Source: Escherichia coli (lineage in GTDB: Bacteria; Pseudomonadota; Gammaproteobacteria; Enterobacterales; Enterobacteriaceae). From it: DNA of 64,000 nt. The notes under the pieces are model-generated. The model was not told where the DNA came from. It did no database searches and saw only the letters and a list, made by a program, of their open reading frames with translations. Positions 38,979 to 52,648 of this stretch are shown piece by piece (the stretch's first letter is position 1; the number at the start of each line of letters is the position of its first letter). The stretch lies in assembly GCF_003334315.1 (NCBI RefSeq), contig NZ_QOWR01000005.1, one strand, 5' to 3'. A program made the translations under genes and the position numbers.

Positions 38979-39013
38979 CAGCCCGACGAACTGTTTCGCC
39001 GGGCTGATTTTTC
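38979..39013. terminator. Imperfect bidirectional terminator between perM and focB
   Basis: GCCCGACGAA...TTCGCCGGGC stem followed by TGATTTTTC. Confidence 0.5.
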
Positions 39014-39860
39014 AGGATTCCTGACGTAAATAGATAGCCCGATAACACATACTCACCAGCACTGCACCGCCGATAATATTACCCAGCATCACCGGGAGCA
39101 GATTGGCGGTAATAAAATGGCTTACCGTCAGTGCCGGAAAATTGTCTGCGCTACTGTGCGCCAGTTGCCAGAAGGGGGGAGGGGCGAAATGGCGAATGGC
39201 AATGGCGAACGGAATCACAAACAAATTGGCGATACAGTGCTCAAAGCCACTGGCGACAAACAGGGTGATGGGCAAAATCATGGCGACGATTTTGTCGCAT
39301 AACGAACGCCCGCAATAACTCATCCACAGCGCCAGGCAAACCATCAGATTGCACATAATGCCGAGGCTGACAGATTCAGTAAATGTATGATGCATTTTGC
39401 CCTCGGCGCAGTGTAAAACCGCGACTCCCCACATCGCGTTTTCACTCATCACCAGCCCGGAAAACCAGATTAACAAACTGAAACAGGCAATACCTGCCAG
39501 ATTACCGCAGGCCACCAGAAGTGCGTTAATCAGCCAAGTTCGCCAACTAATAACGCCCCGACTTTTTGCCATCACCGTCATTACCGACGAGGTGAACAGG
39601 CTGGTGCCGCAAACCGCCAGCAAAATAAAGCCGAGTGTAAAGCAAAGGCCGCCCACCAGATGGGTTAATGCCTGTGAAGACGGGGCATCGGCGATAACGG
39701 AAAGGTAAAAAGTAAATCCGATCGCCATAAACACGCCAGCGGACATCGCCATTAAAAAGACCGACACTTTACTGCGGGCAATTTTATGGGCGGCAATCCG
39801 TTCAGCGATTGCCGCTTTTCTGGCGCTCAACTGCAAGTCGAAAGAGAGTTTGTTTCTCAT
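39012..39860 (-). CDS. focB: Formate channel FocB (FNT family)
   Basis: 282 aa; last gene of the hyf operon. Confidence 0.92.
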   Translation of the reverse strand: MRNKLSFDLQLSARKAAIAERIAAHKIARSKVSVFLMAMSAGVFMAIGFTFYLSVIADAPSSQALTHLVGGLCFTLGFILLAVCGTSLFTSSVMTVMAKSRGVISWRTWLINALLVACGNLAGIACFSLLIWFSGLVMSENAMWGVAVLHCAEGKMHHTFTESVSLGIMCNLMVCLALWMSYCGRSLCDKIVAMILPITLFVASGFEHCIANLFVIPFAIAIRHFAPPPFWQLAHSSADNFPALTVSHFITANLLPVMLGNIIGGAVLVSMCYRAIYLRQES

Positions 39861-39881
39861 GCATACTCCTGCAAAAGCAGA

Positions 39882-41894
39882 TTACAACACCTCGCGAACC
39901 GAGATCCCCAGCCGCTGCATTCGTGACAGCAGCGTGGTGCGCTTCATCCCTAATCGCGTCGCTGCGCCACGGGGCCCGGCAACAATGCCATTGGTTTCTC
40001 GCAATACCTGAACAATGCGCTGACGTTCTTCTTCGTCATTCTCTGGCGTCGTCGGGTGCAGTAACTGCGCCATTGAACTGCGAAGCGCTGAATCTTCATT
40101 TAGCGTCGGCAGTAAACGGCTTTGTCGGACATTTAGATGTAAATTCAGACTGTTACCACGAGTCAGCAGTACCGCCCGCTCAATCACGTTTTCCAGCTCG
40201 CGCACGTTGCCCGGCCAATCCCACGACATCAACTGGCGTAGTGCCTCGGTCGGAATGGCGTCAATTGCGCGATTCATATGGCGCGCCATTTTTTGCGTGA
40301 AATGTTTTGCTAAAAGAGGGATATCTTCCGGACGGTCGCGTAGCGGCGGCAATTCCAGTGGGAAGACATTCAGGCGATAAAAGAGATCGCTGCGAAACTG
40401 GCGATCTTCAACCATTTGCCACAAATCACGGTTGGTGGCGGCAATGACTCTGACATTCACCGGGATCGTTCTACTCCCGCCGAGACGCTCAATCTCCCGC
40501 TCCTGCAATACGCGCAGCAGTTTAGGCTGAAGTTCTAACGGCAGATCGCCAATTTCATCGAGAAACAACGTGCCGCCATCGGCAATTTCAAAACGACCAC
40601 GATGGGTATTAATCGCACCAGTAAACGCCCCTTTGTCATGACCGAATAACTCACTTTCCAGAAGACTGGCGGGGATGGCAGCGCAGTTGATTTTGACCAG
40701 CGGCTTGTCGCGTCGCGGGCTAAGTTGATGGATCGCTCTGGCGATCACCTCTTTGCCAGTTCCGGTTTCACCACAAATCAACACCGTACTGTCGCTCTTC
40801 GCCACAATATCTACCTGCTGGAGCAGGTCTTCCATTGCCTGGCTTTGATAGATAATGTCACCGATGCCCAGATTCGAAAGGAGCTGCTCGCTAAGCTGGT
40901 GGTTTTCTTGCTGCAAACTTTCCTGCAAATCGGTCATGCTACGCCAGGCATCGGCATTGCCAACGGCAATAGCGATGCGATCGGCTATGTGTTGTAGTAG
41001 CTGGCAGTTTTCCTCACTAAAGAGAGTGGAAGAGGTATGCGCCAGCAACAATGCACCCGGTGTATGGTTGCCAAAGGTAAGCGGTATAAGGAGCGCAGAT
41101 TCGCAGCCGTTAGATGCAAGTAAGAGTAATAACGGGTCGCGTTGCCAGAGAAACAGATCATCTGCACGGTGCGTCAAGGTCGGTTGTCGGGTTTGTAGCG
41201 TTTGTGTCAGCAATACACTTTCGCCAGGCATACAGCGTGGCAGACACGCACAATGTGAGGCAGAAAGATCGCTGCACCACAGGCTGAACTTCTCGTTCTT
41301 TCGATGATCGCCCAGTACCATACTGACTGAAGCCAGACCGAAAAAATGATGGATCTCACGAGCGACGTCAGCGATCAGATCGTCGAGATCAAGATGTGAC
41401 AGCACTGCATTAGTAATATCAACCAGTACCCGATGATGATCGCGATCTTTCTCCAGCAAACGCAGCGCCACCTGCTGTTCTTCATCATTGAGCCATGATT
41501 GCAGAACCGGGGTGATTATCCGCGCCAGCCAGTTAAACAGTGTGCAATCCTGGGAAGTAAAACGACTGCCGTGGGTGCGAATAAAGCGTAGCTCCGCCAT
41601 TCCACTACTGCCGAGAAGGACGGCGTGACGCGAATAATCGACCATCTCGCCCTGATACTCTGTTGTTGCCGTCACATCGCTGCCATCATCATGGTAGCGG
41701 TAATAGAAGTTGCTTTTGAGAACATGCAGTTCAATAAGTTGTACCGGGCTGAACGGCGGCGGCAGCGGGATGAAGGCGCGTAATAAAGACGCCTTGCCGT
41801 GTTTCTGTGCTAACCGCTCCGCGAGCATTCCGTTTACCGCTTCAATTGTTATTCCTTGTGGCGGGGCAAACATCGCCTCGTCTGACATAGCCAT
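39882..41894 (-). CDS. hyfR: Sigma54-dependent transcriptional activator HyfR
   Basis: 670 aa from the ATG at 41892-41894; central AAA+ domain ([14 protein letters not shown]), C-terminal HTH. Confidence 0.92.
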
Positions 41895-51974: not shown

Positions 51975-52591
51975 TAGCGTTGCTCCTGAGTGAGGGAAAG
52001 GGGATCCTCCCCGCCATTGGCAAACCAGCTTGCGGCAAGGCGCTGTTTTTCTTTCATCTGACGTTGCAGGCTATCGTCGGTGATCAGCCGTAACGCCTGA
52101 TTCGGGCAAGCGCGAACGCAGGCCGGACCTTCTGGCAAGAAATCACACAGGTCGCATTTCACCGCGACGGTCTGGACACCCGGTTCCCAGCGCAGCAACG
52201 CATGTTGGGGCAGCACGTTTTCTTCGCCGTTTTTGAGTGAGCCTTCAGCCTGAAAAACATATTGCGCATGGGCATTCACCGGACGGCTTCCTGAAGCGCT
52301 GATTGCGCCAAATGGGCAGACCACGGCGCAAAGCTTGCAGCCAATACAGAGGCTTTCGTTGAGTTGGATCGCATCATCCCTCTGAGAGATGGCATTGACC
52401 GGGCAGACCTGCAGGCAAGGGGCTTCCTCACAGTGATGACACACGACAGGGGCAGTGATTGTTGACGTCTTCGCCAGGGCCAGGCGCGGGTGTTGCTGTA
52501 AACCTTGCGTTTTATGCACGTCCGAACAGGCAGCGAGACAGGTATTACATCCTGTACACCACAGTGGTTCGGCCACCACAAAGCGGTTCAT
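51974..52591 (-). CDS. hyfA: Hydrogenase-4 Fe-S electron-transfer subunit
   Basis: 205 aa from the ATG at 52589-52591; multiple CxxCxxCxxxCP ferredoxin motifs; stop overlaps the hyfB start (TAATG). Confidence 0.92.
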   Translation of the reverse strand: MNRFVVAEPLWCTGCNTCLAACSDVHKTQGLQQHPRLALAKTSTITAPVVCHHCEEAPCLQVCPVNAISQRDDAIQLNESLCIGCKLCAVVCPFGAISASGSRPVNAHAQYVFQAEGSLKNGEENVLPQHALLRWEPGVQTVAVKCDLCDFLPEGPACVRACPNQALRLITDDSLQRQMKEKQRLAASWFANGGEDPLSLTQEQR

Positions 52592-52632
52592 GTCGGCTCC
52601 TTGAAAATGATATGAAACATTGCATTTCATAT

Positions 52633-52648
52633 TGCATAAAGGATGCCA
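52633..52648 (-). promoter_or_regulatory. Sigma54 (-24/-12) promoter of the hyf operon
   Basis: Minus-strand TGGCATCCTTTATGCA (GG and GC with consensus spacing) about 45 bp upstream of the hyfA ATG; the activator hyfR is encoded in the same operon. Confidence 0.6.

Follow-up and report, generated by a model that had tools for sequence, protein, structure and literature searches.

Hydrogenase-4, the core of formate hydrogenlyase-2 (FHL-2), combines a group 4a [NiFe]-hydrogenase with a complex-I-like membrane arm. In Escherichia coli K-12, the corresponding genes hyfABCDEFGHIJR-focB were reportedly described by Andrews et al. in 1997 and by Skibinski et al. in 2002. The K-12 operon, though intact, confers no detectable hydrogenase-4 activity, and the enzyme that is active in this species is hydrogenase-3, encoded by hyc (PMC7654741). 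The hycABCDEFGHI operon (hydrogenase-3/FHL-1) resembles hyf in its paralogous soluble core, its HycC/HycD-type membrane subunits, a sigma-54 promoter of the same form, FhlA-dependent activation and upstream sites rich in TGTCG/CGACA, but lacks the membrane subunits HyfD, HyfE and HyfF and has the protease gene hycI. A functional FHL-2 is known from Pectobacterium atrosepticum, whose hyf cluster agrees with that of E. coli in its set of subunits and in having an activator of the HyfR type, but differs in that it also carries a gene for the maturation protease HyfK and has demonstrated activity (PMC7384014). E. coli hyf is without a protease gene and silent (PMC7654741), and the copy analyzed here is frameshifted as well.

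We analyzed a stretch of 64,000 nt from an E. coli contig (the window) and assign its region 39012–52648, minus strand, with high confidence to the hydrogenase-4/FHL-2 locus hyfABCDEFGHIJ-hyfR-focB in the form of a decayed allele. The annotation table and the comparison with K-12 both gave the gene order hyfA-B-C-D-E-F-G-H-I-J-hyfR-focB at the bcp/yfgO position, and 14,501 nt of the region are 100% identical to many E. coli chromosomes annotated hyfA to focB. The locus shares with K-12 its chromosomal position, gene order, junction geometry, promoter and spacer, and ten genes are equal in length; 84 substitutions are spread over about 13.5 kb, and the 30 amino acid substitutions are concentrated in hyfA-C. 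What sets it apart from K-12 is that hyfC and hyfD are each one base short and thereby frameshifted. An Rfam search of positions 38800–53000 returned no RNA family. At a distance of 30 kb, the window is not collinear with strain W5-6.

The ten genes other than hyfC and hyfD are full length with intact catalytic and regulatory motifs. All on the minus strand, these are hyfA (51974..52591; a 4Fe-4S ferredoxin-like subunit of 205 aa), hyfB (49956..51974; an antiporter-like membrane subunit of 672 aa, matching NF005086 ‘hydrogenase 4 subunit B’ with 972 bits), hyfE (46882..47532; a membrane subunit of 216 aa, NF008556, 369 bits), hyfF (45297..46877; an antiporter-like subunit of 526 aa, NF005041, 1172 bits), hyfG (43640..45307; the NuoC/D-like [NiFe] large subunit of 555 aa, starting with GTG), hyfH (43085..43630; a NuoI-like Fe-S subunit of 181 aa, NF006076, 362 bits), hyfI (42330..43088; the NuoB-like small subunit of 252 aa, NF005012, 121 bits), hyfJ (41924..42337; a HycH-like maturation protein of 137 aa, NF011664, 208 bits), hyfR (39882..41894; a sigma-54 enhancer-binding protein of 670 aa, paralogous to FhlA) and focB (39012..39860; a formate channel of 282 aa, NF007261, 649 bits). 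A 13-bp terminator-like hairpin (38978..39007, minus strand) lies between the convergent genes focB and yfgO. The profile search that had been proposed as a check on the subunits placed all of them in hydrogenase-4 or complex-I-like families: HyfB, D, E, F, H, I, J and FocB matched NCBIfam models at the equivalog or subfamily level, while HyfG, HyfC and HyfA matched NuoC/D-, NuoH- and ferredoxin-type families, respectively. HyfG carries the CxxC nickel-iron ligands (RVCGIC at residue 243, DPCYSC at 517) and a C-terminal extension, and HyfI belongs to the NuoB family, as expected of a group 4a [NiFe]-hydrogenase. HyfD, HyfE and HyfF, the membrane subunits that distinguish hyf from hyc, are present according to their equivalog matches, with the hyfD frame interrupted.

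The span from hyfA to focB measures 13,580 nt, to which intergenic sequence contributes merely 100 nt. The original prediction had described overlaps of 1 nt (hyfA/B), 11 nt (hyfF/G), 4 nt (hyfH/I) and 8 nt (hyfI/J), which proved exact; its further statement that every remaining gap measures 11 nt or less does not hold, since the other seven junctions are gaps of 4–29 nt, with hyfC/D (16 nt), hyfJ/hyfR (29 nt) and hyfR/focB (21 nt) exceeding that limit. The twelve genes it counted as co-directional do share one strand, namely the minus strand that it had left unstated, but the frames of hyfC and hyfD are broken. AGGAG- or AAGGA-like sequences precede most hyf cistron junctions, and neighboring cistrons are probably coupled in translation via the overlaps or the short gaps containing Shine-Dalgarno sequences. 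The claimed translational coupling is thus compatible with the overlaps and short gaps, except at hyfC and hyfD, where premature stops would interrupt it.

Regarding transcription, the sigma-54-type -24/-12 element TGGCAT-CCTTT-ATGCA (TGGCATCCTTTATGCA), identified by sequence match and conservation, occurs once, at 52633..52648 on the minus strand (reading from 52648 to 52633), and lies 42–57 nt upstream of the hyfA ATG at 52591, with 41 nt between this ATG and its 3' end, in agreement with its predicted presence upstream of this gene. All 11 of its specified bases agree with those of the fdhF promoter, and the bcp-hyfA spacer differs from that of K-12 at 1 position in 252 nt. The bare motif is no more frequent in the window than expected by chance: TGGCAC-N5-TTGCA with up to two mismatches gave 24 matches versus 29.8 expected, and the core TGGCA-N7-TGCA 2 matches versus 1.2 expected. 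The promoter call therefore rests on position and cross-genus conservation, 10 genera having an equivalent element 56–99 nt ahead of hyfA (per-locus p 0.009–0.075). The second core match in the window, at 10199, is taken as a chance occurrence; it falls inside a 384-aa ORF, on the sense strand of that ORF. A search for sigma-70-type promoters gave none in the bcp-hyfA spacer and none around the hyfJ/hyfR junction. Skibinski and colleagues reportedly mapped the start of hyf transcription in 2002 to a site about 30 nt ahead of hyfA. From this position and the usual sigma-54 geometry, transcription from the TGGCAT-N5-ATGCA promoter is expected to begin at about the same distance here. In K-12, the bcp-hyfA spacer is a top RpoN-holoenzyme gSELEX peak (PMC8743547).

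A sigma-54 promoter of this kind depends on an enhancer-binding protein as activator, which here would be FhlA or the operon-encoded HyfR. The GG-N10-GC element precedes the first gene, and HyfR has the AAA+ domain, GAFTGA motif and HTH of such activators, in line with the expectation that the operon carries its own: a GAF domain covers residues 169–311, Sigma54_activat 347–513 and HTH_8 621–661, with GAFTGA at residue 422. Against the FhlA model, HyfR scored 642 bits, under the model cutoff of 830. Its binding sites are probably the CGACA/TGTCG repeats that lie some 100 nt before the -24 element, where the inverted repeat CGACAC-GGG-TGTCGA (52743..52757, minus strand) is a candidate FhlA/HyfR upstream activator site, judging from sequence conservation. 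The block CGACAC-N3-TG(T/C)CGA is kept in four genera, and the region upstream of hyfA in 10 genera is enriched in TGTCG/CGACA half-sites (22 observed versus 6.0 expected), of which the K-12 hyc-hyp spacer likewise contains many. In a terminator scan, the CGACAC-GGG-TGTCG repeat was scored as a weak hairpin of terminator type; we disfavor a terminator role and prefer protein binding because relatives keep the sequence but neither the perfect stem nor the T-run.

Three further elements were noted in the bcp-hyfA spacer and around the predicted start, all on the minus strand. The palindrome CGTGATGAAGATCACA (52774..52789), of the TGTGA-N6-TCACA type, is a candidate CRP site by its consensus and is kept as TGTGAT-N6-ATCACA in E. 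fergusonii, Citrobacter and Kosakonia (7/8). The block TGACCATCATTTTTGT (52704..52719) is near-invariant in E. coli, E. fergusonii, Citrobacter and Kosakonia. The palindrome ATATGAAA-N7-TTTCATAT (52610..52632) spans the predicted transcription start and is not kept in E. fergusonii or Citrobacter.

Not all structural genes of the operon are intact. In hyfC (48999..49945, minus strand; NuoH/HycD-like), deletion of 1 nt relative to K-12 shortens CCCC to CCC at 49654–49656; the frame is lost at codon 97 and a stop follows at codon 105 (49631–49633), as compared with HyfC products of 315–317 aa in outgroups, and the C-terminal fragment still matches NuoH. In hyfD (47544..48982, minus strand; NuoL-like), GGGGGG is likewise reduced to GGGGG at 48890–48894, with loss of the frame at codon 30 and a stop at codon 37 (48872–48874). 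The remaining HyfD fragment matches positions 31–480 of NF005097 with 774 bits, and the repaired protein matches the model end to end (1–480) with 810 bits. The alignment to K-12, the ORF structure and the RefSeq annotation, which flags both genes as frameshifted pseudogenes, agree on the two lesions. An intact operon, with twelve working, coupled genes producing hydrogenase-4/FHL-2, would fit the ten full-length genes with their intact motifs as well as the presence of promoter and activator, but is contradicted by the reading frames of hyfC and hyfD and by the RefSeq flags; moreover, even the unbroken hyf operon of K-12 is without activity (PMC7654741), and we give this reading hardly any credence. 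The operon in the window is a pseudogenised allele of hyf and no different system. A functional hydrogenase-4 complex is unlikely in this strain because hyfC and hyfD are frameshifted, with loss of function deduced from the sequence.

Both lesions are single-nucleotide losses in homopolymers (C4 to C3 and G6 to G5), a typical error class of some platforms, which raises the question of sequencing or assembly errors masking intact genes. Among about 4,290 complete genomes that carry hyf, however, the same hyfC C3 allele occurs in 306 and the same hyfD G5 allele in 998 (23%). These are independent genomes from many laboratories, and the BL21(DE3) reference, E. coli B and NCTC strains are among them. 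All six C3 genomes sampled also carried G5, which argues for inheritance rather than random error and renders the error explanation extremely improbable. Between the window and E. coli B/BL21(DE3), which have both deletions, the hyfB-hyfD segment shows 4 mismatches in 3,186 nt and no gaps. The hyfD length given in RefSeq is 1,436 nt for BLR(DE3) and strain B771 versus 1,439 nt in the window, such that a further small difference is possible. Our literature search on the hyfC and hyfD frameshifts yielded nothing specific, and a paper on hydrogen metabolism in BL21(DE3) is silent on them.

We also considered that the frameshifts might be bypassed to give a working or partly working complex, through reinitiation at a new start codon that would produce HyfD without residues 1–29, -1 P-site slippage on the G-run and a two-fragment HyfC. 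The hyfD deletion creates AATGGGGGTT, in which a new ATG at 48896 heads an ORF in frame with the remaining 450 codons of hyfD, and the short upstream hyfD ORF ends 22 nt past this ATG, within reach of termination-reinitiation, but no Shine-Dalgarno sequence is evident before it. A -1 slip of tRNA-Gly on UGG-GGG would restore W-G-V-L. Programmed frameshifting is nevertheless unlikely, as a canonical in-frame X XXY YYZ slippery heptamer is absent at both sites. For hyfC, transcriptional slippage would need a longer run than C3, and the protein would be split at residue 97 without an obvious restart. Persistence of the G5 allele in 23% of hyf-bearing genomes might speak for some retained function, but many of the G5 genomes have acquired further lesions, such as a 208-nt hyfD deletion or, in strain 1500, a frameshift in hyfB, as predicted by decay. 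Although hyfD as such may be leaky, via the 450-aa HyfD from ATG 48896 that would miss only 29 residues or via the -1 slip, we consider a bypass that rescues the complex quite improbable.

Reading the locus as a pseudogenised allele, then, early termination in hyfC and hyfD would break translational coupling at both genes. About 630 nt of untranslated hyfC RNA would be exposed, which could permit Rho-dependent polarity on the downstream genes, and a complete hydrogenase-4 membrane arm would not be made in this strain. Since the other ten genes have kept their full length and hyfD differs from its K-12 counterpart by 15 synonymous versus 1 nonsynonymous changes, the two lesions may have arisen recently, or some constraint may still act on the remainder of the operon. 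Any work on hydrogenase-4/FHL-2 in this strain, or with E. coli B/BL21 as host, has to reckon with broken hyfC and hyfD genes. Our understanding of hydrogenase-4 itself is unchanged: the operon, its sigma-54 promoter and its activator HyfR were described in 1997–2002, and RefSeq already flags both genes. Nothing at this locus is new, and the original prediction, which had equated it with the described Hyf FHL-2 locus, was borne out by the subunit families and by a promoter conserved across genera.

Decay of hyf is widespread in the species. The operon is absent from about 21% of the 5,426 complete E. coli genomes compared, its loss being known for the F/G/B2 lineage (PMC6896753), and hyfD is disrupted in at least a quarter of the hyf-bearing genomes, the separate 208-nt deletion alone being found in 849. 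Absence in about a fifth and disruption of hyfD in at least a quarter of the rest fit a dispensable, silent operon in E. coli. One may go further and suppose that the homopolymer alleles are more than dead ends: G5, with the start codon that it creates, might yield an N-terminally truncated HyfD, and a remodelled hydrogenase-4 might thereby persist. On a wider view, the lesions, nested and recurring as they are (loss of the whole operon, the 208-nt deletion, G5 and C3), may record a loss of FHL-2 that is still under way across the species; we regard this combined scenario as improbable. If true, such species-wide loss would help to account for the elusive hydrogenase-4 activity in E. coli. Decay is also the context of a dN/dS ratio of 0.18, against 0 nonsynonymous and 21 synonymous changes in the neighboring gene yfgO.

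The stretch from 38500 to 53000 is 100% identical over 14,501 nt to many hyfA-focB chromosomes (megablast, 5,426 complete E. coli genomes) and carries the hyf locus between bcp/gcvR and yfgO/bepA (RefSeq annotation of one identical record), as in K-12 MG1655. The original prediction of the known, little novel Hyf (FHL-2) locus was borne out by this identity and by the family matches of the subunits, but it had overlooked that hyfC and hyfD are each interrupted by a 1-nt deletion. The ORF list of the window contains neither a 315-aa HyfC nor a 479-aa HyfD. Alignment with K-12 revealed that a CCCC run in hyfC is shortened to CCC at 49654–49656 (frame lost from codon 97, stop at codon 105) and that GGGGGG in hyfD is reduced to GGGGG at 48890–48894 (frame lost from codon 30, stop at codon 37). 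Putting back the missing bases gave uninterrupted frames of 315 codons for hyfC and 479 for hyfD. Repaired HyfD (1–479) aligns with positions 1–480 of the HyfD model (810 bits), the 450-aa fragment with 31–480 (774 bits), and HyfC measures 315–317 aa in nine other genera, so that the intact frames are the ancestral ones. Like the locus itself, both frameshifts are already known, as hyfC and hyfD are tagged ‘frameshifted’ in RefSeq for strain W5-6, whose hyf is identical to that of the window. The remaining ten genes have K-12 lengths and lack internal stops.

To identify carriers, we ran megablast searches, which require a 28-nt exact seed, with 41-nt probes that had the deletion in the middle; since the intact allele cannot supply such a seed, only carriers should match. 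About 4,290 complete E. coli genomes bear this part of hyf; the shortened hyfC run (C3) was present in 306 genomes and the shortened hyfD run (G5) in 998, the latter out of about 4,284 with hyf, and among the carriers are BL21(DE3), E. coli B and NCTC strains. Over hyfB-hyfD, BLR(DE3) differs from the window by 4 mismatches in 3,186 nt, without gaps and with both runs shortened. All six C3 genomes examined at the sequence level also carried G5. This recurrence across genomes rules out random sequencing error, and the 6/6 co-occurrence suggests that G5 was already present when the hyfC run was shortened. While W5-6 shares the hyf sequence of the window, it differs ~30 kb away, and the window thus represents a different strain or arrangement; at that distance the W5-6 chromosome bears RepA and TraJ genes (L021, NZ_CP032992.1 1223560–1225725), unlike the window.

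The original prediction of twelve compactly arranged genes holds for the twelve co-directional frames between 39012 and 52648, all on the minus strand, yet not for the integrity of hyfC and hyfD or for uniformly tight spacing. The frames are hyfA (51974–52591), hyfB (49956–51974), hyfC (48999–49945), hyfD (47544–48982), hyfE (46882–47532), hyfF (45297–46877), hyfG (43640–45307, GTG start), hyfH (43085–43630), hyfI (42330–43088), hyfJ (41924–42337), hyfR (39882–41894) and focB (39012–39860), with a terminator-like 13-bp hairpin (39007–38978) downstream of focB. Overlaps had been quoted exactly (hyfA/B 1 nt, hyfF/G 11 nt, hyfH/I 4 nt, hyfI/J 8 nt), but the limit of 11 nt at every junction is exceeded at hyfC/D (+16), hyfJ/R (+29) and hyfR/focB (+21), the other gaps being +10 (hyfB/C), +11 (hyfD/E), +4 (hyfE/F) and +9 (hyfG/H). 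Intergenic nucleotides account for 100 of 13,580, and AGGAG- or AAGGA-like sequences precede most starts. From the sequence, translational coupling along the operon can reasonably be inferred.

The subunits matched the expected NCBIfam families, with above-cutoff scores for the models named for HyfB (972 bits), HyfE (369), HyfF (1172), HyfH (362) and FocB (649). HyfJ matched the HycH maturation family (208 bits), HyfI matched NuoB (121 bits), HyfG matched NuoC/NuoD and [NiFe] large-subunit models, and HyfA matched HydN/AegA-type ferredoxins. HyfG retains CxxC nickel-iron ligand motifs at residues 243 and 517 as well as a C-terminal extension. The locus also encodes its own activator, as proposed: HyfR combines GAF, sigma-54-interaction AAA+ and HTH_8 domains with a GAFTGA loop at residue 422, and its score against the FhlA model, 642 bits where the cutoff is 830, identifies it as an FhlA paralogue rather than FhlA itself.

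The system follows the described FHL-2 scheme: formate transport would fall to FocB, and the sigma-54 promoter would be switched on by FhlA or HyfR as an enhancer-binding protein responsive to formate, giving a polycistronic mRNA whose coupled translation would yield a complex-I-like hydrogenase. Translation in this strain ends at hyfC codon 105 and at hyfD codon 37. In the complex I/FHL architecture, the soluble module is joined to the membrane arm by NuoH-like HyfC, whose loss alone should block assembly; untranslated RNA past the hyfC stop may also allow Rho to lower the expression of genes further along, including hyfR. A bypass of the frameshifts appears very improbable. The hyfD deletion does generate an ATG (48896; 48890–48896, AATGGGGGTT) that shares its frame with the 450 codons left, and slippage by -1 on the G-run would give back the wild-type peptide, but this ATG lacks a Shine-Dalgarno sequence, a canonical slippery heptamer is missing from both sites, and additional lesions have been acquired by many G5 genomes.

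The -24/-12 element placed about 45 bp upstream of hyfA was found as a single occurrence of TGGCATCCTTTATGCA (52648–52633, minus strand), 42–57 nt upstream of the ATG. The motif alone is unremarkable: TGGCAC-N5-TTGCA with up to 2 mismatches gave 24 matches versus 29.8 expected in the window, not beyond chance, and the core TGGCA-N7-TGCA gave 2 versus 1.2. The other core match (10199–10214, plus strand), on the sense strand within a 384-aa ORF (9511–10665, plus) that we tentatively take to be RlmN-like from size and position, is probably due to chance. Independent support for the putative hyfA promoter element is its conservation across genera. In all nine relatives compared (E. fergusonii, Citrobacter, Kosakonia, Trabulsiella, Atlantibacter, Hafnia, Proteus, Morganella and Aeromonas), a GG-N10-GC element with 8–9 of 11 consensus bases lies on the sense strand 56–99 nt upstream of hyfA, with a per-locus probability of 0.009–0.075 in first-order Markov simulations; the upstream neighbour gene and surrounding sequence vary among them. 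The K-12 fdhF promoter, TGGCAT-AAAAG-ATGCA, agrees with the hyfA element at 11/11 specified positions, to be compared with TGGCAC-N5-TTGCT of hypA and TGGCAC-N5-ATGCT of hycA. Primer extension by Skibinski et al. (2002) reportedly mapped transcription initiation to 30 nt upstream of hyfA, in keeping with the element's geometry. A sigma-70-type promoter was found neither before hyfR nor in the bcp-hyfA spacer. This spacer differs from that of K-12 at one base (-192), and the K-12 spacer is among the strongest RpoN-holoenzyme gSELEX peaks (PMC8743547).

Alignment of bcp-hyfA spacers from four genera identified, besides the likewise conserved -24/-12 element and Shine-Dalgarno sequence, a CRP-like TGTGAT-N6-ATCACA (CGTGATGAAGATCACA, 52774–52789, minus), a CGACAC-N3-TG(T/C)CGA repeat (52743–52757) and the block TGACCATCAYTTTTGT / TGACCATCATTTTTGT (52704–52719, minus). 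In ten genera, the DNA upstream of hyfA is enriched in TGTCG/CGACA half-sites (22 observed versus 6.0 expected), which are also dense in the FhlA-controlled hyc-hyp spacer, making the repeat at 52743–52757 a likely candidate FhlA/HyfR site. The -192 difference from K-12 sits in the central N6 of the CRP-like sequence. A perfect 8-bp palindrome, ATATGAAA-N7-TTTCATAT (52610–52632, minus), extends across the point where hyfA transcription is predicted to begin; E. coli has this palindrome, but E. fergusonii, Citrobacter and Kosakonia do not conserve it.

Decay of hyf extends beyond the two runs. Most of the locus is absent, with flanks kept, from ~1,134 genomes (21%; 38500–53000 against 5,426 genomes), in agreement with the reported loss of hyf in the F/G/B2 lineage (PMC6896753). 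A junction probe detected a separate 208-nt internal hyfD deletion in 849 complete genomes, combined with G5 in strain 1500, where hyfB is frameshifted too, and with the intact run (G6) in DETEC-S565, where hyfD measures 1,232 nt; in the strain 1500 locus (L003) it lies at ~2509, equivalent to window ~48019–48226. Compared with K-12, hyf of the window shows 30 nonsynonymous and 54 synonymous differences (dN/dS ~0.18) versus 0 and 21 in the neighbour yfgO (Fisher p = 0.0007). Even with the intact K-12 hyf, Hyd-4 activity was not found, including under hyc or T5 promoters, and a maturation protease gene is absent from the E. coli operon (PMC7654741). The most economical interpretation is that E. 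coli can do without hyf and is losing it piecemeal, the window representing one stage. Synonymous divergence from K-12 is uneven, with 0.03–0.045 in hyfA-hyfD (47544–52591) and, within 39012–47532, 0–0.012 in hyfE-hyfR and 0.02 in focB, a pattern suggestive of mosaic recombination with its breakpoint close to hyfD/hyfE.
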